A stretch of DNA of 64,000 bases from a virus. This document shows positions 7,616-58,114 of the stretch, one piece after another. The stretch spans positions 1-64,000 of the IMG/VR virus record IMGVR_UViG_3300021399_000145; one strand, 5' to 3'. The translations under genes were made by a program, and so were the position numbers. A model generated the notes under the pieces. That model was not told the origin of the DNA. It did no database searches and saw only the letters and a list, made by a program, of their open reading frames with translations. How positions within the stretch are numbered: position 1 is the first letter of the stretch; each line of letters starts with the position of its first letter.

Positions 7616-7644
7616 ATATTTTACTACTTATATGCTCCTTTGCC
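7616..7644 (-). promoter_or_regulatory. Promoter family copy (TTGGCA-N17-TAAAAT with conserved spacer GGAGCATATAAGTAG)
   Basis: Member of the conserved-spacer promoter family described in the findings. Confidence 0.45.
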
Positions 7645-7735
7645 AATAGTCAAATAAACGCATACATTATATGTAGATAATGGATTTTTCGCTAATTTTT
7701 CTTTTACATTTTTTTATTTTTTTAATATTTTTCCT

Positions 7736-8311
7736 TTAAAATTCACGTTTTATCGATTCTTTAAAATTTCGATATGTTTTATATTTTCTTTTCCATGATG
7801 ATTGAATGTCGCCCAAATTAAGTCCTAATTTATTTGTAACAAAATTTATGTATTCAAAATCATAAAGCTTTCTTCTACGTTTGTTTTTCTTTTTAATATC
7901 TTCAAATACTTCATCCTTTGAAATTTTGTATTTTGTTAATAAATAATTAGCCATATCTTTAGAAGAATACTCTTCGAATTGGCAAATAGGGCAGAATTCT
8001 TCTGGAACTTCACCGTAACACCATTCCGACAATATTTCATCAATCATGTCATCATTACTCATTTCAGAAAGTTCTTCTTCCGTTAATGGTTCAATAGATG
8101 AATAAGAGGACTCTATTTCTCGCATGAATTCTAACAATTTTTCTCGTGGTGGAGTTAACGCATGTTCATTACAAATAATATGACAATTTACACATTCAAA
8201 CATTTCTCCATCTTTTACTGAACAATCCCATCCAGAAATTTCATTACCACAAATATCACATACAAAACTTGATGAACTAGAATTGGTTACAAAATCTTTT
8301 CTGTATTTCAT
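7736..8311 (-). CDS. TNSSSSSF-motif family protein 1 with CxxC...CxxC zinc ribbon
   Basis: The N-terminus MKYRKDFVTNSSSSSFV is shared with two neighbouring paralogs. Four Cys lie in two CxxC pairs. Confidence 0.5.
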   Translation of the reverse strand: MKYRKDFVTNSSSSSFVCDICGNEISGWDCSVKDGEMFECVNCHIICNEHALTPPREKLLEFMREIESSYSSIEPLTEEELSEMSNDDMIDEILSEWCYGEVPEEFCPICQFEEYSSKDMANYLLTKYKISKDEVFEDIKKKNKRRRKLYDFEYINFVTNKLGLNLGDIQSSWKRKYKTYRNFKESIKREF

Positions 8312-8323
8312 AGCAATCTCCTT

Positions 8324-8806
8324 TTAGTGATGGCTAAATCGAATTAATGTGCAATCAAGATTCGGCATAATATCTTGTTCTAATGCGCTATTAACATGGT
8401 CGTCATATTCAACTTCCGCAAGAAACTCATAATCTGCTATAACAGATTCGAACGTTTTACACCTTTTTTCAACTTGTTTATTAACTTCATCTTCTATTTT
8501 ATTTTTATTATCATCTAGCCATTTTAAAAAATCTTTAAAATTTAAACCAAGTTTATACTCATATTTATTTTCTATTTTCCATCTTATAGGAAATTCTATT
8601 TCTTCACGGTATATGGCAACTGCTTTGTTTTTTGTTAAGTGGTTTTCTTTTTTCTTTATATCGCGTAAAACAATATCATAAGCATATCCACCGAAACGCG
8701 GGACAATAGAATCATATAGTTGCTTTTCGATATTATCTTTATTTTTAAATCCAACGATAAAACTACTTGAACTACTATTGGTTATATAATCAGTTCTTAT
8801 TTTCAT
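8324..8806 (-). CDS. TNSSSSSF-motif family protein 2
   Basis: The N-terminus MKIRTDYITNSSSSSFIV resembles those of the two paralogs. The C-terminus is unrelated. Confidence 0.5.
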   Translation of the reverse strand: MKIRTDYITNSSSSSFIVGFKNKDNIEKQLYDSIVPRFGGYAYDIVLRDIKKKENHLTKNKAVAIYREEIEFPIRWKIENKYEYKLGLNFKDFLKWLDDNKNKIEDEVNKQVEKRCKTFESVIADYEFLAEVEYDDHVNSALEQDIMPNLDCTLIRFSHH

Positions 8807-8898
8807 TTCATTTTATCCTTTTCGTATTATTATAAGTGTATAAATATATTGCATTATCTATTGTTGCGAATAACGCACCTAATAGCATTCCGTCAAGT

Positions 8899-9183
8899 TT
8901 AATCTTCTTCATTTGTCATGTGTTCACGTTCCATATCTTCACAACTGTCAGCCCTTTGTTTATCTCCATGCTTATAGTTGTGCTTACCGTTCCACTCGCT
9001 ATTGGTTTTACGATACTCTTCATGGTCGTGTATTTTCCCGTCAATATATTTACCTAGAATGCCATCATTATACTCTTTAGCGTCACCCCATATACTCTCA
9101 CAGAGTTTATATTTTCTTATAGCTTTGCGATAATTCTTTTTTCTTCTATCGCCCCTAGTTTTCTTTCTTCTGTCTTCACTCAT
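8899..9183 (-). CDS. Highly basic, His-rich small protein; start reassigned to MSEDRRKK
   Basis: A Lys/Arg/His-rich ORF. The upstream part of the ORF-track ORF overlaps the preceding gene, so an internal ATG was chosen. Confidence 0.3.
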   Translation of the reverse strand: MSEDRRKKTRGDRRKKNYRKAIRKYKLCESIWGDAKEYNDGILGKYIDGKIHDHEEYRKTNSEWNGKHNYKHGDKQRADSCEDMEREHMTNEED

Positions 9184-9538
9184 ATTGTGACACCTTCTTA
9201 AAATATTCACCATCATAATCTCGCGATGAGTATAAGAAATAGCTACCGTAATCACTTTGATTTTCTGCAACGCCACTAAAAATTTTCCAATCACCAAGCG
9301 TCAAATTAGGACTAATTAATTCATCTTCAAGATAATTTATTGCTATATCACGCAATTTTTCTGGCGTATAACCATTTTTAACGTAATATGAATATGAATA
9401 TTTAAATTCATTATCAATTATATGATAGTTTTTATTTACAAATTTTTTAATTTCATTAGTTAAATCAGCATCTTTATGAACCGCAATAATAAACGAACTT
9501 GACGAACTATTTGTTACAAAATCACATCTTACTTTCAT
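9176..9538 (-). CDS. TNSSSSSF-motif family protein 3
   Basis: N-terminus MKVRCDFVTNSSSSSFII. Confidence 0.5.
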   Translation of the reverse strand: MKVRCDFVTNSSSSSFIIAVHKDADLTNEIKKFVNKNYHIIDNEFKYSYSYYVKNGYTPEKLRDIAINYLEDELISPNLTLGDWKIFSGVAENQSDYGSYFLYSSRDYDGEYFKKVSQYE

Positions 9539-9768
9539 AACTCTTCCTCGTTGATTTTCTCAATATATCCACAATGTTCTAATAATTCTAAAAAGTCTTG
9601 AGCCATATGTTCGCCCATTTTAGGAGTAATATGTGAAAAATTAATAGCATAATCTGATAATACGCTTGATAAACACCCCCATTCCGTTAAAGTAAATACC
9701 GCTTCCTCGTCAATATCTTCTTCATTAATATAAAAAATTTCATCATCTATATCTTTATTTAATTCCAA
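9535..9768 (-). CDS. Small acidic hypothetical protein
   Basis: ORF with overlapping stop/start, strongly acidic. Confidence 0.35.
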   Translation of the reverse strand: MELNKDIDDEIFYINEEDIDEEAVFTLTEWGCLSSVLSDYAINFSHITPKMGEHMAQDFLELLEHCGYIEKINEEEL

Positions 9769-9825
9769 TTTTTAAAATCTCCTTTACTTTGTCACCATAA
9801 ATGTATATTAATCGGGACAAAATTA

Positions 9826-14012: not shown

Positions 14013-14891
14013 TTACTCATTTTTGCTTTCCTCTCTGCTGTCGGCAATCACTGAATCTGCTCCCTGTACTGTTACCCAACCATGTTCAAGTCTTGCCTCA
14101 GCTTCTTTCATACGGATAAGTTCTTCTGTGATTGACTCAGATATAATTTTGTTTGCTTCGGCTTCTGCTTCTGCTTTAGTTACTTCAATATCAGCTTCGT
14201 TTTGCGCCTTAATAAGATTTGTCTCTGCTTCAACCTGAACTGTTTTCTGCTTTGCTTCTGCTTGCGCTCTGGCTTGCTGTGCCTTTACACGTTCGTCAAT
14301 AGTTTCTTGAAGCTTTTCATCGGGGTGAGCATCAATAATTGAAGCATCGATAACCTCAATACCATATGCATCTTTGAATTCATTATTAAGATATTCTGTA
14401 AGTTCATTGTTAATCTGGCTACGATTGCCAGAATAAATATCCATCAGAGAATAATTGGTTGTAATCTCAGACACTTTAGATTTAAGAACTGTGCGAACCC
14501 TGCCCTGTACAATATCGTCTCCGTCCATTCCCTTAAAACGCTTATAAGTATCAACCAGTTTTTCAGGAATAAATCTATAAGACATTTGAAAGTCGATACC
14601 AATACTCGCATCATCCGATGTAGCAACTCGAAAAGATTCATCTTCTTCCGAACCCTCTCTCGAATCCTGAGTGAGAATAAGCTGTTCGTTTGAAACGGTA
14701 AATTCTTTTACTTTGATTGTCGGCGCAACAATATGCCAACCCTGACTTAATGTTTCGTCTTTTACTCCGCCAGAGATTGAATACTGAACACCCGCATAAC
14801 CGACAGGAATCTTTTCAATACAAATGATTGCACTAAACAAACCGATTATAAGAATCGCACCAACAATAACGCTACCGATAAATCCTTTCAT
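14013..14891 (-). CDS. SPFH/band-7 (stomatin/prohibitin/HflK-like) membrane protein
   Basis: N-terminal TM helix, then IPVGYAGVQYSISGGV...GWHIVAP typical of the SPFH core, then an Ala/Glu/Gln-rich coiled coil (QARAQAEAKQ). Confidence 0.6.
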   Translation of the reverse strand: MKGFIGSVIVGAILIIGLFSAIICIEKIPVGYAGVQYSISGGVKDETLSQGWHIVAPTIKVKEFTVSNEQLILTQDSREGSEEDESFRVATSDDASIGIDFQMSYRFIPEKLVDTYKRFKGMDGDDIVQGRVRTVLKSKVSEITTNYSLMDIYSGNRSQINNELTEYLNNEFKDAYGIEVIDASIIDAHPDEKLQETIDERVKAQQARAQAEAKQKTVQVEAETNLIKAQNEADIEVTKAEAEAEANKIISESITEELIRMKEAEARLEHGWVTVQGADSVIADSREESKNE

Positions 14892-15139
14892 TACTTACTT
14901 TCTCCTTTTTCGTTGTTGTAAAGTTTAGATATATATGAATTAATTTCTTTCTCGATGGAATCTAAATCAAACTCTTCGTGATACACTTCTTCTTCTGGTG
15001 GTTCTTCGTCATTTAAAATGCGTGTGATTTTTTCTTTCTTATTAAATACGAAATCACCAATTATCCTAAAGAGTCCACTGAGCAGATACCATACGAGAAA
15101 TAAAATTAAACAAATAATTAGCCAAAAAACTATATTCAC
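14891..15139 (-). CDS. Small single-TM membrane protein coupled to the SPFH gene (NfeD-like partner?)
   Basis: Hydrophobic N-terminus, with an ATGA overlap to the downstream SPFH gene. Confidence 0.35.
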   Translation of the reverse strand: MNIVFWLIICLILFLVWYLLSGLFRIIGDFVFNKKEKITRILNDEEPPEEEVYHEEFDLDSIEKEINSYISKLYNNEKGESK

Positions 15140-15816
15140 TTTTTTACCTCTACCTCTAGCAAATGTGTTGCTTCCATATCGGCTTCATGTAGAGCCATCG
15201 CAAGCGGAAACTTTTCAAAGGCATTTCCTAATGAGTTCCAGATATTTTGTCCTTCATAAGCTCCCATGTGAAATCTAATTGCGACCGCTTCTTCATCTGT
15301 GAGTGTAATATATTTATTTACAAGATATACACTCTTATCACCATGTCCAAATGGAAACTGTTCATCAGCTTTATAATAAGGTACTGTTTCCCATATAAAG
15401 CTACCATTATTATCAGACTTAATCTGCCAACGTGCGGCGGCACTTACCTTTTCCTCATCATATGTTTTCTGATTTCTAAAGTCTACCGTGTAGAAATTCG
15501 CTTTGCAAACATCATGAAGTAAAGCGGCGAGAGCAAGTGATTCATCTGGCGTTTCAGATAAATATTTAACCCATAGCGGATTTTTCTTCTTTTTAACAAG
15601 ACAAGTGTAAACATTCAAACTGTGAGAGACAAGTCCGCCCTCGTAATCACAGTGGAATCTTGACGATGCGGGAGCTGTATAAAAATCAGTAGATTCAAGA
15701 TAATCGATTAATTTATCAATACCCTCACGCTTTGTATCTCTCAAAATCATATTGAAAATTTCATGATTTGATAAGTCCTCAGTTTCTTTAAGAAGTGGTT
15801 CGCTGTTCAAATTCAA
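15136..15816 (-). CDS. HD-domain phosphohydrolase (DatZ-like dNTP hydrolase candidate)
   Basis: H...H (RFHCDYEGGLVSHSL), HD (LLHDVCK) and a downstream D (HEADME) form the HD metal-binding signature. Confidence 0.55.
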   Translation of the reverse strand: MNLNSEPLLKETEDLSNHEIFNMILRDTKREGIDKLIDYLESTDFYTAPASSRFHCDYEGGLVSHSLNVYTCLVKKKKNPLWVKYLSETPDESLALAALLHDVCKANFYTVDFRNQKTYDEEKVSAAARWQIKSDNNGSFIWETVPYYKADEQFPFGHGDKSVYLVNKYITLTDEEAVAIRFHMGAYEGQNIWNSLGNAFEKFPLAMALHEADMEATHLLEVEVKK

Positions 15817-15954: not shown

Positions 15955-15983
15955 ATTTTACTACTTACATTCCCGTATGTCAA
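15955..15983 (-). promoter_or_regulatory. Promoter family copy (TTGACA-N17-TAAAAT, spacer TACGGGAATGTAAGTAG)
   Basis: The -35 and -10 boxes and the conserved spacer were read on the minus strand. Confidence 0.55.
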
Positions 15984-17029: not shown

Positions 17030-17674
17030 TTAAGTGAAATCGCAAACCTTGATTTTTGTAATAATTCTGTTGTGCTGTCTATCATAAAGGTCTATTATTG
17101 GCTTACCGACTACACCTTCCATTTCGTGATTCGGGTTAATAAGTGAACAAGGGCGAGTCTTAATAAATTCAACAGCTTCCTTAATCGTTCCAGTCATAAC
17201 CAATGGTACGATTTTAATACCGAATGCTTTTGCAATATCCTGAATGTCCCGATATTTAAGCCAAGTATCTGAGCCAACCATATACACATCGAACAAGATA
17301 AAATCACAGCCATCAGGAATGTAATTACCGCCGCCTTTCTGGATTTTCGCGCCGTAACCTTCGCCAAAGAGAACCACTTCTTTCTCGCCAAACAGTTGTT
17401 CAAACATTTCTTCGGCTTCGTTCGTGCCAAAAATCTCAATTAATCTATTCATTAGATGCGCGGGAATCTGCGCTCTTTCTGTTCTGCCCTGATAGTTTAC
17501 TTTGTGTCCATCCCAGTATATACCCGTATTTGCTCCGTCGCATTTTTCGCTAAAAAACCAGAGATTATCAGACAAAAATTTAATAGCTTCGTTTCTATAC
17601 TCTCCCTCAATGAGTTTCTTACTTCCTTCCATGTCTCTGACAAATGGCGTTTCAATTTTGGTATATTTATACAT
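17030..17674 (-). CDS. ATP-dependent RNA-ligase-like nucleotidyltransferase (KxDG family)
   Basis: Motif I EKCDGAN (KxDGxN) with a downstream FGEGYG (motif IV-like) and a KIK motif. Its 214 aa size fits the minimal Rnl-type ligases. Confidence 0.5.
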   Translation of the reverse strand: MYKYTKIETPFVRDMEGSKKLIEGEYRNEAIKFLSDNLWFFSEKCDGANTGIYWDGHKVNYQGRTERAQIPAHLMNRLIEIFGTNEAEEMFEQLFGEKEVVLFGEGYGAKIQKGGGNYIPDGCDFILFDVYMVGSDTWLKYRDIQDIAKAFGIKIVPLVMTGTIKEAVEFIKTRPCSLINPNHEMEGVVGKPIIDLYDRQHNRIITKIKVCDFT

Positions 17675-17700: not shown

Positions 17701-17729
17701 ATTATACTACTTATATTCTCTTTTGTCAA
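17701..17729 (-). promoter_or_regulatory. Promoter family copy (TTGACA-AAAGAGAATATAAGTAG-TATAAT)
   Basis: A perfect sigma70 consensus with a 17-nt spacer, 25 nt upstream of an RBS and the ligase ATG. Confidence 0.65.
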
Positions 17730-19280: not shown

Positions 19281-19613
19281 TTATACTCCTTTTTCTTTAA
19301 TCATTTTGTACCCACAATGCGGACAATAATCACTCAATACTGTCTTATGTCTTAGCCAATCTCTCATTGCCCATCCGTCACAATTAGAACAGTAATAATG
19401 TCCAAAATGTTCTGGCGGCATCATACCTTTAGCCTTAACCCAATAAGCTGTTTCGCAATTTATATTTTTATTTAAAGGTTTAATCATTTCATCTTTTGCT
19501 GTTGGTATTTTTCGTATTTCTTGTACTTTTTGACAATTATAATTACAGTCCCATCTATCACAAAATGAACAGATTAAACTTATTACATTATCTTCATTAA
19601 TTAATCTTCCCAA
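19281..19613 (-). CDS. Zinc-ribbon array member (CxxC...CSNCDGW...CPHCGYKM)
   Basis: Cys pairs with the CPHCG terminal ribbon shared with the downstream paralogs. Confidence 0.45.
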   Translation of the reverse strand: MGRLINEDNVISLICSFCDRWDCNYNCQKVQEIRKIPTAKDEMIKPLNKNINCETAYWVKAKGMMPPEHFGHYYCSNCDGWAMRDWLRHKTVLSDYCPHCGYKMIKEKGV

Positions 19614-19881
19614 TTGTTAATCCTTTCATATTAGAACCGCAATGTCTGCAATAATTATCATAATTATCTAAGTCATAAACATCTTTAAAATATCGACCAC
19701 AGTTTGAACATCGCGCTTCATCGCCCCACTTGCGAATAATCCAAATAGCGGTCTTTTGTTCTTGTTGTACTGGTGGTAAAGCTTTTACGGCATCAACAGC
19801 GCAGTCTAACCATGCATTAGGTTTTTCGTGTAATTCATTTATTGTATCTATAACAACTTGTTTATTAATTAATTCAACCAT
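19597..19881 (-). CDS. Zinc-ribbon array member (ALPPVQQE ... CSNCG ... CRHCGSNM)
   Basis: Shares the LPxxQxE linker and the terminal C-x-x-CG ribbon with the array. Confidence 0.45.
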   Translation of the reverse strand: MVELINKQVVIDTINELHEKPNAWLDCAVDAVKALPPVQQEQKTAIWIIRKWGDEARCSNCGRYFKDVYDLDNYDNYCRHCGSNMKGLTIGKIN

Positions 19882-19888
19882 CGTTACA

Positions 19889-20128
19889 TCATTCCATCTT
19901 TGCCCCGCAGTTTGGGCAGAAGTCTGTTATCTCTCCGTTCTTCGGCTCAGACTTACACTCAGAGCAGTAAGGATAGTAGCCATCAGAGCTGATAATCCAG
20001 TGCGGTCGATTACGATTAGGCTGTACCTCACGGTTCAGCGGCGCAATCATCTGTTCGTACTCTCCAAGTGTGATATCTCCATTATCAAGCTTGCGGTCTG
20101 CGTCTCTTATCAGGTCAAGATATGTCAT
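19889..20128 (-). CDS. Zinc-ribbon array member (CSEC...CPNCGAKM)
   Basis: Terminal CPNCGA-K/D-M motif. Confidence 0.45.
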   Translation of the reverse strand: MTYLDLIRDADRKLDNGDITLGEYEQMIAPLNREVQPNRNRPHWIISSDGYYPYCSECKSEPKNGEITDFCPNCGAKME

Positions 20129-20352
20129 TCATTCTCACCTCCACGATACGACTCTGGTTCTTCTCGATTGCATATTTCCAAAAAATCCTCTTTTGACTTT
20201 TCTTCAATTTCTTTTTGGATGCCTTTGTCTGACAGTTCGTGAGTGAATACTGGTCTGCCGAGTTTTTTCTGGATATATTTATGAACATCATCAAAGTCGC
20301 ACATCAATACTCCAGTGTATGCTGATACTATTATCTTTTCTCGCTTAGTCAT
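20125..20352 (-). CDS. Small hypothetical protein within the array
   Basis: ORF with overlapping stops/starts. It lacks the ribbon. Confidence 0.3.
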   Translation of the reverse strand: MTKREKIIVSAYTGVLMCDFDDVHKYIQKKLGRPVFTHELSDKGIQKEIEEKSKEDFLEICNREEPESYRGGENE

Positions 20353-20659
20353 TTTCCGTACCTCTCATATCCGCTCCGCAGTTCGGACAGAACTTCAAAT
20401 CATCTACCGTAAACCCTATATCGCACCATCTGTACGCATCCACCGTAAATCTCTGTTTGCAATTAGAACACATAATGTCATCATATTTTTCAGTGTCAGA
20501 ATCAAGGTCTATCCACTCGCCCTTCGGACGTTCTGGTTGTGCGGGTGGCAATGCTATTATTTTACTCGCATACCAATCAGGATAGTGTGCATCGGGATAT
20601 TCTCCCATAATCGCATCAATCGCCGCCTGTCTGTTTATAGTGTCATTCATCCTGTTCAT
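20345..20659 (-). CDS. Zinc-ribbon array member (RQAAIDAI ... ALPPAQPERPKGEW ... CSNC ... CPNCGADMR)
   Basis: Full family architecture. Confidence 0.5.
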   Translation of the reverse strand: MNRMNDTINRQAAIDAIMGEYPDAHYPDWYASKIIALPPAQPERPKGEWIDLDSDTEKYDDIMCSNCKQRFTVDAYRWCDIGFTVDDLKFCPNCGADMRGTEND

Positions 20660-20831
20660 TCCTTTCTATCGGACATATTGGTAACAACCATTTTACCAAC
20701 GTGTCGCATCCATCAATCTGAACACTTAGTTTATTACATACATATGTCCAATCATCGATAGACATATCCCACGCTTGTAAATACGGGCAGTCAATAGGGC
20801 AATCAATCGGAAATTGAATCATTTTGTTCAC
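20643..20831 (-). CDS. Small Cys-rich protein within the array
   Basis: CPIDCP..C..C..C. Confidence 0.3.
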   Translation of the reverse strand: MNKMIQFPIDCPIDCPYLQAWDMSIDDWTYVCNKLSVQIDGCDTLVKWLLPICPIERNEQDE

Positions 20832-21084
20832 CTATCATATCTGCTCCGCACATCGGGCAAGTATCGAACGCATAGCTTCGTCCTTCTCCACAACTCGGAC
20901 ACTCGTACCTGACTATCCACCGTCCCATCTTGTGTTTTGGCTGTACAGATGGCAATTCCATAATCTCATCTTCGAACACGTCACTTGGAATGCCGTAATT
21001 CGCAGTCCAATAATCTGTTGACATATCCTGCGTGTATTTGTCTATGAGGTCAATAACCGCAGAACGTTCAATTAAATCGTTCAT
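20803..21084 (-). CDS. Zinc-ribbon array member (MNDLIERSAVIDLI ... LPSVQPKHKMGRW ... CPSCG ... CPMCGADM)
   Basis: Full family architecture. Confidence 0.5.
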   Translation of the reverse strand: MNDLIERSAVIDLIDKYTQDMSTDYWTANYGIPSDVFEDEIMELPSVQPKHKMGRWIVRYECPSCGEGRSYAFDTCPMCGADMIGEQNDSISD

Positions 21085-21406
21085 CCTGTTCTCTTCTCAT
21101 ATCTGCTCCGCAGTTCGGGCAAAACGCTGTTTGATGCTTACCAACACCATATCCACACTCAGAACAATACCACGGCATCCAACCTAATAATTGTCCGTTA
21201 TGTTTTGCTCGTTCCTCTTCTTCGTTTATATGTTTCCAATACCCTTTCTTTCGTTCTGGCTGTGCGGATGGAATGGCGATTACAATGCTTTTTGCAATGT
21301 CCATTATATTGACCATATCATTCTCAAAGCCAAAACAATAAATCAACTTTCTCTGCCGTTCGTTGATTTCATTAATTACCGTCTGTCTGCTTATCAAATC
21401 ATTCAT
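21068..21406 (-). CDS. Zinc-ribbon array member (MNDLISRQTVINEI ... IPSAQPERKKGYW ... CSECG ... CPNCGADMR)
   Basis: Full family architecture. Confidence 0.5.
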   Translation of the reverse strand: MNDLISRQTVINEINERQRKLIYCFGFENDMVNIMDIAKSIVIAIPSAQPERKKGYWKHINEEEERAKHNGQLLGWMPWYCSECGYGVGKHQTAFCPNCGADMRREQDERFN

Positions 21407-21737
21407 CCTCTATACATCTCATATCTGCCCCGCAGTTCGGGCAGAAATTATATAATGGCTGTCCATCTTCCACCCGATAACCGCAAGCATCACAAAACCA
21501 ATAGTCATACGTTACATATACCAAAGTTGCCCCAATGTATTCACAGCTTTTTTCTCTATGCGGTGTCCACCTTCCCCTCATCCTATTTGGCTGTGCAGAT
21601 GGTAGTTCTTCCAATGCATCACGGATAAACCGCTCTCGCTCTTTACTGAATCCGCCGTCCCAATCGTCAGCCGCTTCTATTGCCGCATCAATCGCCGCCT
21701 GTCTGGAAATTAAATCATCCTCTTTTTCACCTCTCAT
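21399..21737 (-). CDS. Zinc-ribbon array member (DLISRQAAIDAAI ... LPSAQPNRMRGRW ... CDACG ... CPNCGADMR)
   Basis: Full family architecture. Confidence 0.5.
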   Translation of the reverse strand: MRGEKEDDLISRQAAIDAAIEAADDWDGGFSKERERFIRDALEELPSAQPNRMRGRWTPHREKSCEYIGATLVYVTYDYWFCDACGYRVEDGQPLYNFCPNCGADMRCIEDE

Positions 21738-22023
21738 ATCGAATATCTCCGTGTTTGATAATGCTACGAATCATCCAATCGTAACCACAGAATCCTTTTG
21801 ACTTCCTCTCTAGTTTTCTAGCCTCATTAGCCGACATTCGTGTGGTTGTAACGCAAGCAGTCCAACCGTCATCCCAACTGTGGTAGAATGACTTATTCCA
21901 ATACTCTTTTGGTACATCGCATTCTCTGCGTGTTCGCACAAACAACTGTCCTTCTTGAGACCATTTACTATTCCACGAGCCTTTATTCGGCATTGATAAT
22001 TTAAACACTATCATCCTGTTCAC
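21727..22023 (-). CDS. Hypothetical protein interrupting the array (Trp-rich, no ribbon)
   Basis: ORF track. It is distinct from its neighbours. Confidence 0.35.
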   Translation of the reverse strand: MNRMIVFKLSMPNKGSWNSKWSQEGQLFVRTRRECDVPKEYWNKSFYHSWDDGWTACVTTTRMSANEARKLERKSKGFCGYDWMIRSIIKHGDIRYER

Positions 22024-22504
22024 CTCTCCATTTCTTCACCATTACGGAAATATGTGCCGCCGCCAGATTTGCGAATTCATTATCGAGACTTTTTAGCCAC
22101 TCGATATGTTCCTTAATCCACGATAGCGAAATTGACGGTTCGGGTTGTGAAATAACAACATCTGGATTCTGATATTCGCAAGGGCTTCCGAGATAACACG
22201 GCGTCTCTGACTGTGCGGATGGCACTCTTTGTAATATATAAACTTCCTCGCACCAATTATCTCCTTTTTGGATTGTTGAACAAGTTTCTGGTTTGTCAAC
22301 TGTACATTTAGAACATAATGTATTAATAGCGGTCTGTCTGCTGATTATGTCACCGACATTTGTGTCGGTCGCAACGGGCTGTGCGGATTCAAGCATATCC
22401 TTTATTTCGGTTAATGCTTGTTCATAATGCCACAAATCACTGTGTTCTGCCTTGCCAATATCAGCTGAGATATTGATTAACCAATTAACGGCTTCTCTGT
22501 TATC
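22001..22504 (-). CDS. Divergent array member (DIISRQTAINTLCSKC ... RVPSAQSE); start reassigned to MDNREAV
   Basis: Carries the family helix and the PSAQ linker, with a different Cys arrangement. Confidence 0.4.
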   Translation of the reverse strand, partial: DNREAVNWLINISADIGKAEHSDLWHYEQALTEIKDMLESAQPVATDTNVGDIISRQTAINTLCSKCTVDKPETCSTIQKGDNWCEEVYILQRVPSAQSETPCYLGSPCEYQNPDVVISQPEPSISLSWIKEHIEWLKSLDNEFANLAAAHISVMVKKWRGEQDDSV

Positions 22505-22820
22505 CATCGGTTCTCCTTTCCGCAAGACCACAATAAAAATCATCTTTGACCGTGACTCCAAAAATTGTAGCCCACGCATTTGCCACGCAATTCTTCGTTC
22601 CTTTGTGCTTGCAGTCCTTACATTTGATTATCTCTGGCTGTTTGCGTCTTTCCTTCAGCTCTCTCAGCCATTCCGCAAATTGTTTGTATTCATTTGCACT
22701 TTTATACAATTTTTGTGAATGGAGGGCAGAATTATCTGCCATGCCCTCATAAGTATTTGCTACTTCCTCGAACTGTTCGATAGTTTCTTCAAGTGTCATC
22801 ATCTGTTCTCCTTTCTGCAT
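22500..22820 (-). CDS. CKDCKH / DDFYCGxAERRTD small protein, paralog A (start uncertain)
   Basis: The C-terminal half is near-identical in pattern to the 22789-23124 product. Confidence 0.4.
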   Translation of the reverse strand: MQKGEQMMTLEETIEQFEEVANTYEGMADNSALHSQKLYKSANEYKQFAEWLRELKERRKQPEIIKCKDCKHKGTKNCVANAWATIFGVTVKDDFYCGLAERRTDG

Positions 22821-23124
22821 ATCCGCAGTAAAAATCATCGTCTGTATCGATGTGCGACACATCGTATGTTTCTCCGTATAGTGAACGCCACATATCATCA
22901 CTTTCGCAAAACCCAAACGACAACAGAACACCTTTATAATTGGTCTGTTGCTTCCAGTGCTTGCAGTCCTTGCACAGAATTATCTCTGGCTGTTCCAATG
23001 CTTCGATTGCCATTTCGAGAGCTTCCACAATGTTGTCATCTTCAACCTTCATGGTAATGTTCGCATAGTCCACGAATGAGTCTAGGATTGGTTTTAGAAT
23101 TTTAATTGCTTCTTCTCTGCTCAT
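22789..23124 (-). CDS. CKDCKH / DDFYCGxAERRTD small protein, paralog B
   Basis: PEIILCKDCKHW ... DDFYCGYAERRTD matches paralog A. Confidence 0.45.
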   Translation of the reverse strand: MSREEAIKILKPILDSFVDYANITMKVEDDNIVEALEMAIEALEQPEIILCKDCKHWKQQTNYKGVLLSFGFCESDDMWRSLYGETYDVSHIDTDDDFYCGYAERRTDDDT

Positions 23125-23408
23125 TCGTTCATCATCCCCAAGCTATCTCTGAACACATCCAATATCATTTTTGCCCTGTCAATATCTGGATAGCGCACAT
23201 CGGGTGTTGGGTGTGTCAGAATCCGCCACGCTTCGTCATACTCAAACTTTGCAGACTTGAGGATTTTCAGCCATGCGAGCATATACCTGCATTTCTCTGC
23301 ACTTTCGAGATAATACGCCTTTACCGTAGGATACACACTTGTCTCAGCAAGCTCCTTGTTCATTCTTTCGGAATTTTCGTATTGCTCAATCGCCTGCTCA
23401 ATCGTCAT
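23121..23408 (-). CDS. Hypothetical protein
   Basis: ORF track. Confidence 0.35.
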   Translation of the reverse strand: MTIEQAIEQYENSERMNKELAETSVYPTVKAYYLESAEKCRYMLAWLKILKSAKFEYDEAWRILTHPTPDVRYPDIDRAKMILDVFRDSLGMMNE

Positions 23409-26711: not shown

Positions 26712-26725
26712 TACTTATTTTCTCC

Positions 26726-32973: not shown

Positions 32974-33160
32974 TTATAAATTCTGGCGACTATAGAATAC
33001 AGCATATATAAAGAAAGGAAGGAGATAAAGATGAACCAATTATGAACAACTTTGTGTACTTCCATAGCCGCCAGTGAAAGGAAGAAAAAATATGAAAAAC
33101 TGTGCCGAATGCACAAGTATTTGTTTGTCGTTTGTGGTCTATCTCTCAACCACTACGTGT

Positions 33161-38237: not shown

Positions 38238-38254
38238 ATTACCTACATTCCCCT

Positions 38255-39932: not shown

Positions 39933-39977
39933 TTAATAGTATTCACCTCCTTCCTTTTTGCTACTTATATTCTCCTT

Positions 39978-40226
39978 TTATTCTTGTATTATACCACTTT
40001 TAGGGTCATATTTCAACCCCGAAAACATACTTTCTATCTCTTCTTTTGCGACATAACTAAACTTAAAATCTGAATTATTAATTATATCAGCTATTTCTTT
40101 TTGATTTTCGGCAAAAGATACTAATTCTGCGGTTTTTCCACAAACGCTACATACTAAATCTTTGTCCGCCAATTTAAAATCTGTAACAACTGGGTCGCCC
40201 ATGCAAGACTTATAGATATAATACAA
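39978..40226 (-). CDS. Small protein with CSVCGK zinc-ribbon-like motif
   Basis: ORF track. Confidence 0.3.
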   Translation of the reverse strand: MYYIYKSCMGDPVVTDFKLADKDLVCSVCGKTAELVSFAENQKEIADIINNSDFKFSYVAKEEIESMFSGLKYDPKSGIIQE

Positions 40227-40780: not shown

Positions 40781-43700
40781 TTAGTACATATTATTCCCTT
40801 CTATTACTCTATATCTATTTATCCACAACTCCTTTTCTTTATAGTCCTTAATCCATTTTCCATCTTCGCCCATTTTATACTTTGGCGAATATTTGTATGA
40901 CTCGATAATAACCAAATCACCAGTCTTTATTTTCTGACCATTAAACAACTTTTTCTGGACTTTAACATCTAATACACTGCCATTTGCAAGGCAATAAACC
41001 TGTAATCTCGGTGAATAGGTGGTGACGCATGATGTAACAAACACTAAATTTGCGTACTTCCACTTATCTATAATATCTATATAACCAAGATATTCTCTCT
41101 GGTCTGATATCTTATCCTTTAAACCTCTTCGCGGACAGTTGTCCTTATAGTTCTTTTCAAAACGGCGAAGCAAAGCGAACATATCAACACGCATGTATGT
41201 CTTGTCTGTTTTTCTCTCGCAATAATCTTCAAGCAAACTTTCTGGTATACATAACTTCTTTGCGGAAGTAGCTTTTACATTCCTAAACTGTTTCACCTCG
41301 CCAGATTTATAGACGTTATAAAACATATCTACTACATGGAGTAATGCGTTTGTCTCACCAAAACTCTTGAAGAAATCTAACTTTGTCAAAATTTTTATAT
41401 GTTCTGATGTTACATCACCCTTGCAGTTTTCTTTAACAGCCACAAGCAAGTCTGTAAATGTATCAAAATCCCTGTCATAAAGTTGCGATAAACTATTTCC
41501 AGTATTTTTTCCTATACTTTTTATTGAACGCAACCCTTTAACAACAGCATTTTCTTCTTTAATGAAAGAATAACCATTCATAGACTCGCCAAACTGAATT
41601 TGTTTAATTTTTATACCGTGTTTCTTTGCATACGTAGTAATATTTTTTGTCTTTTCTATGTCGCCATCAAACGTTTCGAGAGCCGCCGCAACCCATTCAA
41701 GCGGATAATAATGTCTATACCACGCTGAAATATAAGCAATTGCATGATATGACATGCTGTGAATCTTAGAAAACGAGTAGTCAGACGCATCAAGGATTGT
41801 CTGTAAGAATGGTTCAATTGTAATTTCCGCTTCTTCTCTCGCAACCCCATATTCATTAACCATCGTGTCTATAAAACGTTTCTTAATCTCTGGCAGTAAT
41901 GATTCTGTACCTTTCTTTTTAGCGATTGCTCTACGGACTACATCAGCTTCACCCGCCGAATACCCCGCAAATTTCTGTAACCACTCGCTAATTTCCTCCT
42001 GAAATAACAGTCTACCAAAAGTCGGGTCTAAGAAATCTTGCAACGGCTTTAATTCGTAATCTACATATTCGCCCTCTGCAATAGAGTCACGATAAGACGT
42101 TCCTGACGGTCTAAGTGCGGCGTTACAAATCGCTCCTAAGTTAAAAAGGTCTAAGTCTCCACGCCTTTTCAGTACCTTTGCCATTGTTTCGTCAGAGAAA
42201 AATCTGCGAATGAAAGCGAAAGCCATAGAGGATTCATATTGGAAAATCATAGTGGTATCTTGTCTCATATCCCTAATGACTTCAAAATCTTCCATATCCT
42301 GAAATCTTTCACTGTCTGGCGTAGGCTTCTCGTGACCGCAATACTCCGCAACAAGATTAATCAGTTTAAGATTATTAAGACCCAACAAATCAAACTTAAC
42401 CCAATTGTAAGCATCGAGCGACTTCATTTGTACCTGCGTAGATATATAATCTGAACTTCCAGATTTTGCAGTTCCAAGCTCTCTTTCAATGTTTCTATCA
42501 GATATAAGAATACCACTCGCGTGAATCCCAGTATTAACAACAACACCAATAACAAGATTGACAATTTCGCACAAGCTAGGATATTTCTTTTCCATTTCTG
42601 GCGTAATCTCGTCTTTATCGCCAAGCATAGACTTGATACAATCTATCTCTTTTAAGTTATATTTAAGACCTTTTCCGACATACTCTATAGCCTTTCTAGC
42701 TTTCATTGTACCGAATGTTATAATCTGCGCGGCTTTCATATTCGGTAATCCTAAATGGTCTTCAATCATAAATTTTGTGACTCTCGCTTTTGATTCGTCA
42801 TCATAATCCGTGTCGATATCAGCAAGATTAACGCGCTCTCTTGACATGAATCGCGAAAACGGAAGGTCATATTTAATTGAATCCATTTCTGTTATTCTAT
42901 TTACATATGCCAACATAGAACCGCCGACAGAACCACGCCCAAATCCATAGTTAATTCCATTGGCGTTCTCATAATCTCTAATATGCATCTGTAAAAGCAT
43001 GAAATCCTGCGCATTATTGTCGCACATTACTTCATACTCTTCTCTTAAACGAGGCTCTATTTCTTCCCAAGTGTACCTTTTACTTGCGTAAGGATGATTC
43101 TTGTACGCTTTAACTGTTTTATCCCACAAAACCTTTTTACCATCTTCATAAATTTTAGGATATTTATAGTTCTTATCAAGCGTAAATTCTTCTATCCTGT
43201 CAGCCATAACGTTTGTTTCTTCAATAGCTTTTAAGTAAACATCTTCTGGAAACACGTCTTGCTTCTTATATTCTCCTACGAGATTATTGTAACTCAGCAT
43301 ACATAAATTAAATTCTTCTTCGTCTGGATATGATTTGCCCGCGCCACGTTCAACAATTAGTCTTGCACATGCATACTCTTTATTGAAAGAATGTGTATCA
43401 GTACCCGCTATAAGAGGAACGCCGATTGATTTATGTATATCATAAACGTATTTATTATATTCAATTTGACTTGCGCAATTATGATGCTGTATCTCTAAGT
43501 AACACCTGTCCCTATTCTGGCTTAAAAAATTAATTGTTCTTTCTCTAACATCTTCATTAGATTTAGTTCCCAATAATCCGCCAATACAAGCTGTTGTTAT
43601 AATAATATTGTCGCTCGTAGAGAATAATTCGTCCATTGTTATGCGCGGCTGATAATACATATGTTCTTTATCGAAAGATTTTGAGCTTAATTCATTTAAT

Positions 43701-48396: not shown

Positions 48397-48474
48397 TCTT
48401 ATACTCCTTTTCTACTTACATTCTCCTTTAGTTACTATATATAAAAGCAGAATTTCTTCTGCTATTATAAAGAA

Positions 48475-48850: not shown

Positions 48851-49876
48851 TTATTTTTTCGCATTCGATTCTAACTCTCGCTTCAACCTGACAGCGTGAT
48901 ATCTATATGACGTTTTAAATTTATCTATAGCAAGCTCATTATCGAAGTCCCACCCGTATGTATTACGCAACATAGCGTTTAATTCATCATGTTCTGCCTT
49001 GTCAGTAGTTGGATTCAGCATAACATCAATAAAGCGTTCTTTACCAAGGTTTTCAACAACTCTATTTATAAGTCCGCTCTCCCATAACCTTTGTTGCGAG
49101 AAATCAGTTCCGTTGTTATGGTTGAATCTTTCTAACAATTTATACATGCTTTTCTGTATACGATGCCGACCTTCATCTACAGTTACAAAGTGTTCTATAT
49201 CACTTTTATTTATCATGATATAAGGGACTACGCGGTCTTCGACCGCTACCAGAACGCCTTTCTTATAAGTATATAAAAATTCATTTTCGTCCTTTAATTT
49301 GTAGATACTGTCTAATAATCTTTTTGACGGTATCCTGTCGCCAAACTTAGTATGAATTACACCGTCTGAATCAATATCCGAATATCGAAAATTAGATAAC
49401 AACTTGTACGAGGAAAATATACCCTCATAAATCGACAAAGTAATTACGTTGTAGTAATCTTTATTATCAATATTTTGGTCAATCGCATTACAAATATATT
49501 CTCTTGTATACGGCTTCAACGAATCGTTCATCGATATATAGTTTGTAAACGCATCCAATGTTAAAGCAAGTCCATAGCAAGGGTTATTACTTACAATCCC
49601 CTTGTCAAGCAAAAAATTAAAAAGTTTTGTATAAGCTCCGCGACCAACGTGAAAACTAGACACGGACGTTGTATTTATTCTTTCGTATAGTAGTTCCGCT
49701 ATATCTATATCTTTAAACTCCGCAAAAGATTTATAACCACGCTCTTCTGCTATGTTGTCTATGGACTCGCTACGTAAAAACTTTAACTCTGTTTTCGTAA
49801 GTTCGTTATTGTTAATAAATTCTTTTAAGTAATTATTATATTCTTGTTTAGTTAATGTATACATATTATTTACCAT
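48851..49876 (-). CDS. Hypothetical protein downstream of the recombinase (possible accessory/DNA-binding)
   Basis: ORF track. Confidence 0.4.
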   Translation of the reverse strand: MVNNMYTLTKQEYNNYLKEFINNNELTKTELKFLRSESIDNIAEERGYKSFAEFKDIDIAELLYERINTTSVSSFHVGRGAYTKLFNFLLDKGIVSNNPCYGLALTLDAFTNYISMNDSLKPYTREYICNAIDQNIDNKDYYNVITLSIYEGIFSSYKLLSNFRYSDIDSDGVIHTKFGDRIPSKRLLDSIYKLKDENEFLYTYKKGVLVAVEDRVVPYIMINKSDIEHFVTVDEGRHRIQKSMYKLLERFNHNNGTDFSQQRLWESGLINRVVENLGKERFIDVMLNPTTDKAEHDELNAMLRNTYGWDFDNELAIDKFKTSYRYHAVRLKRELESNAKK

Positions 49877-49928: not shown

Positions 49929-50657
49929 TTACTTATTTATTAAATTAGAATAAAAGTCACTCACATCACTATAGAGTTCTCTATTGTTATCTTCATCGAT
50001 GCCACAATACGCAAGTGTAATTCTTTCTGATGTATGTCCAAACAATCTCATTAACGTTGCAAGAAACATAGCATCATCCTGATGTGTTTTCATTGATGTA
50101 TACCCGAATGTCTTGCGCAGACCATGATTGCCGATACTCAATTCAATCCCCGCATACGCCGCACCCTCATTACACCACTTCCAAGCACCTTGTCTTGTCA
50201 TGTAACCTGTTGAACTTTTATTAGACGGGAAAAGATACCATTCAAGATTGAACTCGCCATAGTAATTTCTCAGAGCCGCCTTGTATTCATCAAGAACAGA
50301 CTGTAAAAGTGGGTTGATACCAAACTCACCATATTTAGATGTTTTCTTCTGGTGGACTCTAATAAACTCCCTATATCTATAATTACCCTGCAATACATCG
50401 CTCCACTTCCTACATATTACATCTGATACACGAAGTCCAGTACAAAGTTCGAACATTACAAGAGCATATTTCTCCATGTCCGTAATAGAATTATTCTTTT
50501 TGCTGTTATAATAAGAGATATAAAGTTTGAGTTTATTTTCATCTTTGATAGCGTATGTTTTGCAAGACTCACCCGCCGCATGAGTCTTACGTTCTTTCGT
50601 TGGAAACTGAACAAATTTGCATTTTTCGTCTGGAATCGGAACTGCAACTGCTGTCAT
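49929..50657 (-). CDS. Short tyrosine recombinase (catalytic domain only)
   Basis: TGLRVSDV (Arg I), HGLRKTF (HxxR) and LFGHTSERITLAYCG (His/Tyr), with an AAAGGAGGG RBS. Confidence 0.65.
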   Translation of the reverse strand: MTAVAVPIPDEKCKFVQFPTKERKTHAAGESCKTYAIKDENKLKLYISYYNSKKNNSITDMEKYALVMFELCTGLRVSDVICRKWSDVLQGNYRYREFIRVHQKKTSKYGEFGINPLLQSVLDEYKAALRNYYGEFNLEWYLFPSNKSSTGYMTRQGAWKWCNEGAAYAGIELSIGNHGLRKTFGYTSMKTHQDDAMFLATLMRLFGHTSERITLAYCGIDEDNNRELYSDVSDFYSNLINK

Positions 50658-50743
50658 AACTAAACCCTCCTTTATTTTGTGCTACTTATGTTCTCTATTC
50701 TTCTTTAATTATAAGCCCTAACAGTTAACACTGTCAAGGCTAA

Positions 50744-52856: not shown

Positions 52857-52889
52857 AAAATATTACCTACATTCACCTTTCTTTGAATA

Positions 52890-53135
52890 CTATTTTTTAT
52901 TTACAATAAATGTTTCCTTATATTCTTCGCGATACCTTCTTTCCGCCTCGCGTTTTGTGTATCCGTAATACTGTTTTACTCCCGCCAACCCGTAAACCAC
53001 CCATGCACCATGTATATTCTTTTCAGAAAAGTAAATCACGCCAGTATTATACATCTTACATTCTCCTTTCTTAGTGTGGTAATTTTGTATTCGGGTTAAA
53101 CTTCTTTCCCTCTTTGAATCCCTCGCCGTAAACAT
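52890..53135 (-). CDS. Hypothetical protein
   Basis: ORF track. Confidence 0.3.
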   Translation of the reverse strand: MFTARDSKRERSLTRIQNYHTKKGECKMYNTGVIYFSEKNIHGAWVVYGLAGVKQYYGYTKREAERRYREEYKETFIVNKK

Positions 53136-56604: not shown

Positions 56605-56633
56605 AGTATACTACTTATATTCTCTTTTTGCAA
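56605..56633 (-). promoter_or_regulatory. Promoter family copy (TTGCAA-AAAGAGAATATAAGTAG-TATACT)
   Basis: Read on the minus strand. Confidence 0.55.
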
Positions 56634-56641
56634 GAGTAAAA

Positions 56642-57043
56642 TTAAAACGTTTCCTTTGATTCAATAATTGCTTTCTTTGCTTTATCTGTAAGCGTGATGT
56701 TATATCCTTTATTCGGAGTCTTGCATCTTTTTCTTTCTATATTAGTAATAACCCACCCGCTGTTTGTTCTTTCCATTGTGAACTGCGTTGACTGCGGAGT
56801 TCCGCGATACGCATTAGGAAAATGCTGTGCAAAATAATCCACATCAACAATAACTCCAACCATATTTTTCTTACTTATTCCAAGTTTATCTTCTACTCTA
56901 TTTATTGCGGAATATACTTCATATAAATCAATCTTCCTTGCCGATGCTCTTTTCTGTACAACGCTAAGTGCTTCTTCGATTCTTTTGTTATTACTTTCTT
57001 TTCCATTAACAAGAATTCTAACCTTCATTATACATTCCTCCAT
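56642..57043 (-). CDS. Hypothetical protein
   Basis: ORF track. Confidence 0.35.
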   Translation of the reverse strand: MEECIMKVRILVNGKESNNKRIEEALSVVQKRASARKIDLYEVYSAINRVEDKLGISKKNMVGVIVDVDYFAQHFPNAYRGTPQSTQFTMERTNSGWVITNIERKRCKTPNKGYNITLTDKAKKAIIESKETF

Positions 57044-57303
57044 TATATATTTCTTACTGCGTATGTTTTTCCGTTATACTCAAACCAAAGATGCTTACCA
57101 CTTTCTGTTTTGTGGATTTTAGGCTCACATTCGCTTGCGAGATTTAACGTGTAAATCATTTTCCGCATTGCTTCAAACGGAGTCGCGGCGATGAACACAT
57201 ATTCTTTTCTATCATCCATACAAATCACATAGAACATTTTTCCAGTGATATAATTCTTTCCATCGAACATCTCAATTTCTTTCCCTTGCGGCAATCTTCC
57301 CAT
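57043..57303 (-). CDS. Hypothetical protein
   Basis: ORF track. Confidence 0.3.
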   Translation of the reverse strand: MGRLPQGKEIEMFDGKNYITGKMFYVICMDDRKEYVFIAATPFEAMRKMIYTLNLASECEPKIHKTESGKHLWFEYNGKTYAVRNI

Positions 57304-57388
57304 TATTTTTTTCTCCTTCTTATTTTGAATTTTACTTTATTCGCGAAACTTTCTTATTCTATGAATCATTATACATCTTATATTCTCC

Positions 57389-57652
57389 TTACCATCTACC
57401 ATTCTTTTCTACATATTCCTCATACGTAATATCGAATGGCTTGCCTTTCATATCTTTATCATAAATGTATCCGTACTTTTTATGCATTTTCTCGCGCTTA
57501 GGCGTATTACAAACGTCATATCCCGCACGCTTTGACTGTAGAAATCTTATTTTCTGCCAGTCGGCATCCTTCCACTCTTTTTCTTCCTCATATCTACTTA
57601 TAGTTTCTCCGATTCCAAATGTAAACAAGTATGCAAATAACGTGGCAAACAA
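57389..57652 (-). CDS. Hypothetical protein
   Basis: ORF track. Confidence 0.3.
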   Translation of the reverse strand: MFATLFAYLFTFGIGETISRYEEEKEWKDADWQKIRFLQSKRAGYDVCNTPKREKMHKKYGYIYDKDMKGKPFDITYEEYVEKNGRW

Positions 57653-57688
57653 ATTATTTTCCCTCCTTTATTTATATTCCGTGCATTC

Positions 57689-58063
57689 TTAATTCTTCTT
57701 TAAATATATCGGAATGAGTATTTTTATTTTATCCGCGATACTCAAATTATTTCCCTTTGTAAATTCACAAAATTCTGCGGCGGAAAGTTCTTCTAACATT
57801 TTTCTATAAACCCTTGACGGATTTGCCTTTATATCCGCCTTGAGTTTTGTTACGAAATTTTTTCTACTGTTTTCCGCAACTTCTTTAATACGTTCCATAT
57901 CTTCGCGAGGTATATAACTCTCTTTTACGTAGAGTTTTATATTTCCCGCGTTGGATATATGCGCAACTGTCTTGTAATCGCCGTTTACTTCCACGGCTTT
58001 ATTACAAACTGTAATTCCATTTCCAAAGCACCCCATCCAAAGTTCGAAGTTTTTTGCTGACAT
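57689..58063 (-). CDS. Hypothetical protein (start reassigned to MSAKNF)
   Basis: The ORF-track start ATGTATAAT is the promoter -10 box. An internal ATG with a GGAAAGGAG RBS was chosen. Confidence 0.35.
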   Translation of the reverse strand: MSAKNFELWMGCFGNGITVCNKAVEVNGDYKTVAHISNAGNIKLYVKESYIPREDMERIKEVAENSRKNFVTKLKADIKANPSRVYRKMLEELSAAEFCEFTKGNNLSIADKIKILIPIYLKKN

Positions 58064-58084
58064 ATTAATTCTCCTTTCCATAAT

Positions 58085-58114
58085 ATTATACATTACTTAC
58101 GTTCTCCTATGCAA
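58085..58114 (-). promoter_or_regulatory. Promoter family copy (TTGCAT-N18-TATAAT, spacer AGGAGAACGTAAGTAATG)
   Basis: Read on the minus strand. Confidence 0.5.

Follow-up and report, generated by a model that had tools for sequence, protein, structure and literature searches.

The most important finding of this analysis is that a short asymmetric DNA element recurs far beyond chance along the early arm of an uncultured phage, where it may best be read, if tentatively, as a set of dispersed operator and stoperator sites for a predicted phage repressor. The element—RGRGAAYRTRAGTAG(TA), 15–17 bp long, with a consensus that is not its own reverse complement—was followed up in positions 1 to 64,000 of IMG/VR record IMGVR_UViG_3300021399_000145, a stretch of 64,000 nucleotides called the window throughout, in which a first-pass annotation had described nine or more sigma-70-like promoters with a conserved 17-nt spacer. 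We find that the element is self-standing, belongs to the early arm, is always sense-oriented and is embedded in promoter spacers in half of its copies, and that it is not a spacer feature as such. The phage is probably temperate, roughly 130 kb in size and a gut virus, with a unidirectional early/replication arm of ~75 kb.

An asymmetric element of the early arm

The recurrence and strand bias of the motif are the first line of evidence. In the window, the 17-mer on which the first-pass annotation was built, GGAGAATRTRAGTAGTA, has 21 matches at three mismatches or fewer, against 0.89 expected, with 20 of the 21 on the minus strand. With chance predicting 0.87, its 15-nt core, GGAGAAYRTRAGTAG, matches 17 times at two mismatches or fewer, without exception on the minus strand, which is the coding strand. 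The two halves behave alike when counted separately (TAAGTAG, 11 on minus and 1 on plus; GGAGAAYRT, 14 on minus and 0 on plus) and are linked, an RGAG(A/C)AYR block preceding eight of the 11 minus-strand TAAGTAG copies and both TGAGTAG copies. Core copies number ~16 in all, every one of them sense-oriented: 13 in the window and three elsewhere on the same arm, of which one occupies a promoter spacer, another comes after a terminator and the third was left unclassified. Twelve of the 13 lie between called genes, in an arm whose intergenic share is only ~5–15%. The 14.6-kb readable portion of the late arm has no core copy, its sole match being one look-alike ribosome-binding site, and exact-pattern scans of IMG/VR and GTDB genomes for other motif-rich genomes returned single chance matches only. 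A repeat picked up in one Oscillospiraceae metagenome-assembled genome proved unrelated to the window.

When 15 copies were aligned with 60 nt of flanking sequence, conservation was confined to the motif block and similarity ended within ~25 nt. Because there is no similarity beyond that distance, recent duplication of a promoter cassette, one of the origins offered by the first-pass annotation, is excluded; the degenerate positions of the copies differ as well, and the motif persists at orthologous sites at 53–84% protein identity. A mobile promoter cassette of the T4 PeSL type was rejected for the same lack of flank homology and because motif copies do not bound variable open reading frames (ORFs).

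The second line of evidence is the association with promoters (Table 1). A sigma-A/sigma-70 promoter, defined as a -35 with at least four of six matches to TTGACA and a -10 with A2 and T6, 16–18 nt apart, surrounds the motif at six sites (7646, 15983, 17729, 27344, 33189 and 56633), and a seventh spacer copy lies at 58091. The count of nine or more promoters therefore comes down to seven full ones; their placement stands, and the site near 57369 turns out to have a perfect -10 and no -35. The motif itself is present at every coordinate where it had been reported, as well as at three that had been missed (43260, 53050 and 49585), and the genes named downstream (Thg1, the HD-domain protein, the RNA ligase, the tRNAs and the SSAP) were confirmed. 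Mean pairwise identity is 0.77 among the seven motif spacers, aligned on the motif, vs 0.31 among four strong window promoters with motif-free spacers. Because these motif-free spacers are mutually unrelated, the motif is dispensable for promoter function. When the 11 best sigma-A-like promoters of the coding strand are compared, the motif is in the spacer in seven and 11–12 nt after the -10 in two; the remaining two (51045 and 33711) are without it. The hexamers that flank the motif are near consensus, matching it at 12 of 12 positions in three promoters, with 17-nt spacing. Five of the seven spacer copies (7622, 17705, 27322, 56609 and 58091) have the next start codon 25–39 nt downstream; as for the other two, the annotated start of the HD gene is ~140 nt downstream of 15959, and 33165 precedes RNA genes.

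Copies are also found outside spacers, the mix being seven in spacers, two just past a -10 and four or five outside any full promoter. Five of them (39959, 43260, 48410, 49585 and 50680) have no -10 of their own. The sites that the first-pass annotation listed as partial copies are not partial promoters: those at 39959 and 50680 come 12 and 11 nt past the -10 boxes of perfect promoters that stand apart from them, a terminator hairpin precedes 48410, and 38237 and 52861 are ribosome-binding sites with start codons of called genes. In the predicted transcript, the copy at 39959 would start near position +6.

In its 5' half (AAAGGAG) the motif resembles a Shine-Dalgarno sequence, and because of this resemblance the weakest matches are ordinary ribosome-binding sites. 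Weak matches, including the three-mismatch ones at 14889, 26709, 27035 and 60845 and those at 27807 and 59293, were accordingly rejected as members of the motif family, being places where a common ribosome-binding site meets its start codon. The idea that the motif is simply the general ribosome-binding-site consensus of this phage is ruled out for the core copies: about nine of the 117 called gene starts resemble the motif, and most have AAGGAGG followed by 6–8 variable bases. AAAGGAG is present in most copies, with AGAG, CGGG or GGGG in its place in six. Some good copies do serve as ribosome-binding sites (53050 in the window; 3858 in L029; 11776, 14725 and 20074 in the relative L036).

Table 1. 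Motif copies, associated promoter elements and look-alike sites in the window (all on the minus strand)
Position	Promoter elements	Motif	Context
7618-7646	TTGGCA-17-TAAAAT	7622-7638 (GGAGCATATAAGTAGTA), in spacer	Upstream of 70-aa ORF, Thg1-like gene, 64-aa ORF and 441-aa integrase
15955-15983	TTGACA-17-TAAAAT	15959-15975, in spacer	Upstream of HD-domain and SPFH genes
17701-17729	TTGACA-17-TATAAT (12/12)	17705-17721, in spacer	Stop codon of upstream ORF inside -35; RNA ligase gene begins 28 nt past motif
27316-27344	TTGACA-17-TATAAT (12/12)	27322-27338, exact match, in spacer, 2 nt nearer -35	Terminator-like hairpin immediately upstream
33161-33189	TTGACA-17-TATAAT (12/12)	33165-33181, in spacer	Precedes tRNA cluster
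56605-56633	TTGCAA-17-TATACT	56609-56625, in spacer	Upstream of conserved 426-aa gene
58085-58114	TTGCAT-18-TATAAT; -35 weak (TTG only)	58091-58107, in spacer	
39988-40016	TTGAAA-17-TGgTATAAT, unrelated spacer	39959-39975, begins 12 nt after -10	Motif ends 4 nt ahead of true ribosome-binding site
50708-50737	TTGACA-18-TATAAT (12/12), unrelated spacer	50680-50696, begins 11 nt after -10	Upstream of 242-aa tyrosine-recombinase-like gene
57368-57388	Perfect TATAAT after motif, no -35	Present	Intergenic; starts at stop codon of upstream ORF
53046-53066	TATAAT after motif, no -35	Present	GGAG and ATG (53054..53052) double as ribosome-binding site and start of called 54-aa gene
48410-48463		48410-48426	Terminator-like hairpin (48446-48463), then motif, then ribosome-binding site of SSAP gene
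43260-43276		GGAGAATATAAGAAGCA	Within dnaE coding sequence; status uncertain
49585-49608	TTGACA before motif, no -10	Variant GGGGATTGTAAGTAATA	Within 341-aa ORF; kept in L035
51017-51045	TTGACA-17-TGaTACAAT, strong	Neither within nor behind	Contrast promoter
14889-14905, 26709-26725, 27035-27051, 38237-38253, 52861-52877, 60845-60861		Look-alikes	Junctions of ribosome-binding site and start codon (AAAGGAGAA..AAGTAATG)

The third line of evidence is persistence in relatives, which also shows how flexibly the motif and the promoter hexamers can be combined. In L035 (84% identity in the 426-aa protein), the motif is kept at the orthologs of 58091, 56609, 50680 and 49585. The motif-in-spacer arrangement is retained at 56609. 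At 50680 the hexamers are kept and ATAAGTAG is exact even though the sequence between the hexamers has diverged, and the motif lies 4 nt closer to the -10. In L036 (53% identity) the motif takes a different form, GGAGAATnnRGGTAG, found at eight sense-strand sites over 21 kb. The hexamers around the motif are gone ahead of its 426-aa ortholog, where the motif starts 4 nt after the -10 of a different upstream promoter. L037 (51% identity) has no motif. An ordinary promoter without it stands upstream of the 426-aa ortholog, and 15 near-identical early promoters (aaACTACTTGACA-N17-TGnTATAATATA) occur in 21 kb (L037 700-18000), with conservation in the hexamers and outer flanks and a spacer identity of 0.50, which by our estimate is no more than AT-richness suggests. 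This promoter set is far denser and more stereotyped than that of the window phage. L153 and L152 keep GGAGAA between the hexamers of the promoter that precedes the tRNA cluster; in L152 the 3' half differs and the hexamers are 22 nt apart. Two L152 sites (3560-3610 and 4355-4405) read TTGACA-N4-GGAGAATAAGTGATAAG-(G/A)TATAA(T/G), with 22 nt between TTGACA and the TATAAT-like hexamer. This exceeds what a standard promoter allows, unless the true -10 is TAAGRT, 17 nt away. Taken across these lineages, the promoter positions are old and the motif is an addition in some of them, its position relative to the hexamers being flexible.

Among near-identical strains, changes in the motif mostly affect degenerate positions or go towards the consensus. 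The exception is a TAG to TGG change, away from the consensus, at the weak ribosome-binding-site copy 38237. Strains also differ in gene content, and the boundaries of these differences do not coincide with motif copies.

Candidate roles of the element

Our preferred explanation, to which we give somewhat less than even weight, is that these are dispersed asymmetric operator and stoperator sites of a predicted phage repressor. A phage-encoded protein, most likely a repressor, would bind the element and silence the ~75-kb early/replication arm. Copies within spacers, which span about -30 to -13, and those that span about +6 to +22 would overlap the polymerase footprint of sigma-A promoters and act as operators, and the other sense-oriented intergenic copies would be either extra binding sites or elongation blocks (stoperators). 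We infer all three elements of this picture, namely protein binding, a negative effect and lysogeny. What speaks for it is the large and strictly strand-specific excess over chance, together with the presence of the motif in the spacer or 11–12 nt past the -10 in nine of the 11 best promoters, varied offsets being what an operator should show as long as it stays within the polymerase footprint. A further argument comes from the promoter of the 426-aa gene, where the motif occupies the spacer in the window phage and L035, lies 4 nt past another -10 in L036 and is absent in L037. Near-consensus promoters are usually controlled by repression and not by activation. Because the hexamers here are near consensus at optimal spacing, several copies have no -10 and the offset is variable, a repressor is favored over an activator, a sigma factor or an appropriator, all of which the first-pass annotation had listed alongside it. 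Its more specific suggestion of a factor bound between the -35 and the -10 is only partly borne out: a trans-acting factor is the best explanation, but the placement is too narrow, with copies also past promoters, after terminators and once in a gene. Repressor sites would account for most of the facts, including the lineage-specific variants and the extra intergenic copies. The uniform sense orientation could itself be favored, because an inverted site would give leaders an anti-Shine-Dalgarno-like CUCC run.

Several points weigh against repressor sites. First, the Shine-Dalgarno-like 5' half is the best-conserved part of the motif across lineages and is used in some copies as a ribosome-binding site, which favors a role in RNA. 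Second, the L035 ortholog of 48410 has a decayed motif behind a hairpin that is maintained through a compensatory change. Third, the motif is as polymorphic among near-identical strains (~2.8% of positions) as its flanks (~2.7%), in a tally of our own that has low power. Fourth, no binding protein was identified among the candidates examined. The sole recognizable DNA-binding gene on the arm, at its start and outside the window, encodes a tandem HTH_3 protein that was rejected as the binder since it has an operator of its own, a perfect 13-nt inverted repeat over its -10 and start codon, and since its alleles are 48% identical, with differing recognition helices, between strains that share the motif set. 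Behind the gene come a terminator hairpin and a copy of the motif. Divergence of this degree between strains that are otherwise near-identical is typical of immunity loci. Because of its own palindrome and its 48% identical alleles despite identical motif sets, this protein is more likely a separate immunity switch. The other candidate, the 242-aa protein (49929..50657, minus), was considered as a catalytically dead recombinase of the MrpR kind and rejected, all of R, HxxR, H and Y being retained in an alignment with XerD. A PHROGs search with ten larger proteins found no polymerase, sigma factor or regulator.

Both candidates deserve a brief description. The HTH_3 protein has 130 aa and two HTH_3 repeats (L029 3380-3860 and L030 4341-4760). 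The 242-aa tyrosine recombinase lies within the replication module, has next to nothing of a DNA-binding domain at its N terminus and is kept in L035, and dimer resolution is one possible role for it.

The main rival, which we regard as possible though on balance unlikely, is that the element works in RNA, as a Shine-Dalgarno-like polypurine leader ahead of the true ribosome-binding site. Either a held 30S subunit or ribosome would protect the mRNA from 5'-to-3' decay, as in STAB-SD or SP82-like stabilizers, or the element would be a standby or translational-operator site. Such a role agrees with the sense orientation of all copies and with the complementarity of the 5' half to the anti-Shine-Dalgarno sequence, this half being the best-conserved part in L035, L036, L152 and L153. 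Moreover, the copies at 39959, 50680 and L036 9962 are at predicted transcript 5' ends, 4–25 nt before the true ribosome-binding site, those at 48410 and L029 3858 follow hairpins, and several double as ribosome-binding sites. However, because seven spacer copies lie upstream of the start site of their own promoter, transcripts of the enclosing promoters would not contain the motif, and only read-through RNA would. Weak Shine-Dalgarno variants (AGAG, CGGG and GGGG) are commoner in the spacer copies, the conserved 3' half TRAGTAG has no part in a plain Shine-Dalgarno stabilizer, and most of the 117 true translation starts are unlike the motif. Lineages also differ upstream of the 426-aa gene and its ortholog, the motif being predicted to be transcribed in one and untranscribed in another.

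That no trans-acting factor is involved, the copies being related by descent or gene conversion or selected for promoter strength alone, strikes us as improbable. The 15 nearly identical early promoters that L037 carries in 21 kb show that stereotyped promoters occur in this family, and among strains the motif is no less polymorphic than its flanks. Against this, homology does not extend past ~25 nt, and conservation in L037 is in the hexamers and outer flanks, with spacers alike only to the extent that AT-richness suggests. Strong promoters in the window have unrelated spacers, the motif is also found without hexamers, and the gene-content differences between strains neither begin nor end at motif copies.

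Slightly harder still to credit is a positive or polymerase-modifying element, that is, the site of a phage activator, sigma factor or appropriator (similar to a T4 MotA box) or the loading site of a Q-like antiterminator. Q-binding elements lie between the -35 and the -10 in lambda and downstream of the start site in phage 21. The fixed orientation relative to transcription would suit such a factor, as would the motif followed by a perfect -10 without a -35 at 53050 and 57372 and the terminator-like hairpins that precede several motif-bearing units. However, the -35 hexamers are near consensus and have not been replaced, as they are where a MotA box is used, five copies (39959, 43260, 48410, 49585 and 50680) have no -10, and the offset from the hexamers varies, by 0–2 nt among spacer copies and by over 25 nt when all copies are taken together. 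Precomputed Pfam matches for ~82 kb of the genome include no sigma, MotA, AsiA or Q family. In aligned copies checked by eye, the TTTNTTT box of an SPO1 gp28-type middle promoter (AGGAGA-N17/18-TTTNTTT) is absent, and no second element matches the sigma-H, sigma-E, sigma-F, sigma-G or sigma-K consensus.

The least probable explanation, in our view, is an element that is read twice: as DNA by a phage factor that engages or remodels the host RNA polymerase at a dozen promoters, and as RNA by ribosomes recruited to its Shine-Dalgarno half, which would couple transcription control and mRNA fate along the 75-kb arm. The factor on the DNA side could be a multi-promoter Q-like antiterminator or a case of sigma appropriation in a Gram-positive host.

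If the copies are repressor sites, the element would mark the immunity regulon of a widespread, never-cultured family of gut phages of ~130–160 kb. The motif could then predict the promoters that are silenced in lysogens, help find the repressor (by DNA affinity or co-variation) and define immunity groups. That it overlaps a sequence resembling a ribosome-binding site is unusual and could bring to light a coupling of transcriptional silencing with translation signals. If, instead, the element acts at the RNA level only, it would be a phage-wide mRNA leader element.

The phage and its early arm

Nearly all genes between 4.6 and 64 kb of the window are on the minus strand and make up the early/replication arm, whereas the first 4.6 kb carries lysis genes on the plus strand. 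The arm encodes replication proteins (DnaE, DnaB, DnaG and a Sak-type SSAP), enzymes of nucleotide metabolism (NrdD, ThyX and dUTPase) and tRNA-related functions (RNA ligase, a Thg1-like protein and four tRNAs). At its distal end is the 441-aa integrase, which is found at the junction of both arms in three lineages and therefore supports a temperate lifestyle. A low-GC Gram-positive host is indicated because GC content is ~35% and ribosome-binding sites are of the AAGGAGG type. The closest cultured relatives by DnaE, at 38% identity, are large Clostridioides and Bacillus phages, and the best cultured match of DUF8224 is at 48%; with cultured relatives this distant, there are no annotated homologous promoters for comparison. 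Several gut-type metagenome assemblies contain identical or near-identical contigs, of up to 93.6 kb, and more distant relatives number in the hundreds, on contigs of 110–160 kb.

Several features of the arm are worth recording in their own right. A tRNA-repair-like set occupies its distal part (minus strand; 6494-7372, 14013-14891, 15136-15816, 17030-17674 and 31434-32973), consisting of the Thg1-like protein, the HD-domain protein, the RNA ligase, an SPFH/Band7 protein and the four tRNAs, and three units of this set have motif-bearing promoters. Three of the tRNAs are Ile-tat, Gln-ttg and Leu-taa; the fourth, at 32528-32603, was found by Rfam only and missed by ARAGORN. The Rfam search found tRNAs only. 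Between the promoter at 33161-33189 and tRNA-Leu there are two hairpins (33095-33160, minus), one of them terminator-like with a T run (33116..33100), which may represent a small RNA or an attenuating leader.

NrdD, the anaerobic ribonucleotide reductase, is split over two ORFs (35067-37180, minus) of 473 and 178 aa, both with NRDD-family matches. The 155-nt gap between them has stops in the one frame that was translated, and Rfam places no intron family there. At ~19600-23400 (minus), a run of small ORFs has a GC content of 0.416, vs ~0.35, and AACTGCGGAGCAGAT-like sequence before the starts, a sign that these may be small paralogs arrayed in tandem. At 62522-63997 (minus), the early genes include one for a nuclease-like protein of the GmrSD family (DUF262-type), which is kept in L035 and L036; an anti-defense or exclusion function is possible. 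Finally, at the start of the early arm, outside the window, L029 1-1660 includes ~1 kb without called genes after strong promoter-like sequences near 616-660. AT-rich nested palindromes lie at L029 180-330. The region has no Rfam match at gathering score and may correspond to a large non-coding RNA, a replication origin or a genome end.

Comparison with known repeated elements

The closest parallel is with phage L5, whose repressor gp71 has the site consensus GGTGGMTGTCAAG. L5-type repressors of Cluster A mycobacteriophages use 20–30 asymmetric sites of 13–14 bp that are oriented with transcription and have no dyad symmetry (PMC6550527). Some of these sites are operators in promoters, but most are stoperators that block elongation (PMC6550527). 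The element described here is similar in that it has many asymmetric sites in short intergenic regions, oriented with transcription, some of them in promoters, in a genome with an integrase near the arm junction (PMC6550527). The differences are that it is 15–17 bp long, unrelated in sequence, present in ~16 copies and more often in promoters, and that both host phylum and phage family are unrelated. L5 sites are also present on both arms, whereas here, with 14.6 kb of the late arm read, all are on the early arm. The likeness is one of sequence arrangement, both the repressor and the elongation block being predictions in this phage.

A second parallel is SPbeta, in which MrpR binds a 15-bp repeated element (SPBRE) in about ten promoter regions (PMC10516654). 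SPBRE was predicted in silico decades before the MrpR/YopR protein was found (PMC10516654). Here too, an element of ~15 bp is repeated in promoter regions of a large temperate Gram-positive phage, the comparison being one of size and placement, not of sequence. However, MrpR has the fold of a catalytically dead tyrosine recombinase, whereas the 242-aa protein in the window retains R, HxxR, H and Y, and SPbeta has arbitrium, of which no genes were seen here.

The operators of P1 C1 (17 bp) and of phi105 (14 bp) are likewise asymmetric and dispersed and overlap sigma-70-type promoters of many operons. The likeness is again that of asymmetric, dispersed operators in a large temperate genome, with unrelated sequences and hosts; no C1-like or phi105-repressor-like gene turned up here, although none was searched for specifically. 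To our knowledge, P1 operators have not been reported to resemble ribosome-binding sites.

Two further systems resemble the element in part. The STAB-SD and SP82 polypurine stabilizers of Bacillus need only complementarity to the anti-Shine-Dalgarno sequence. As in these, the motif has a polypurine block that lies upstream of the true ribosome-binding site and is distinct from it, close to a predicted 5' end in three to five copies; unlike in these, it has a linked second block, TRAGTAG, and half of its copies are upstream of the nearest start site. In T4, the extended consensus of early promoters serves promoter strength, and PeSL cassettes are mobile cassettes with a stem-loop and longer homology. 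The window phage shares with T4 many co-oriented early promoters that are conserved outside the two hexamers, but its homology ends at ~25 nt and its element also occurs without hexamers. The class of such elements is known, and this phage family is unstudied. If the repressor-site explanation is right, the use of numerous asymmetric sites that follow the direction of transcription would extend to a third unrelated group, after the actinobacteriophages and SPbeta.

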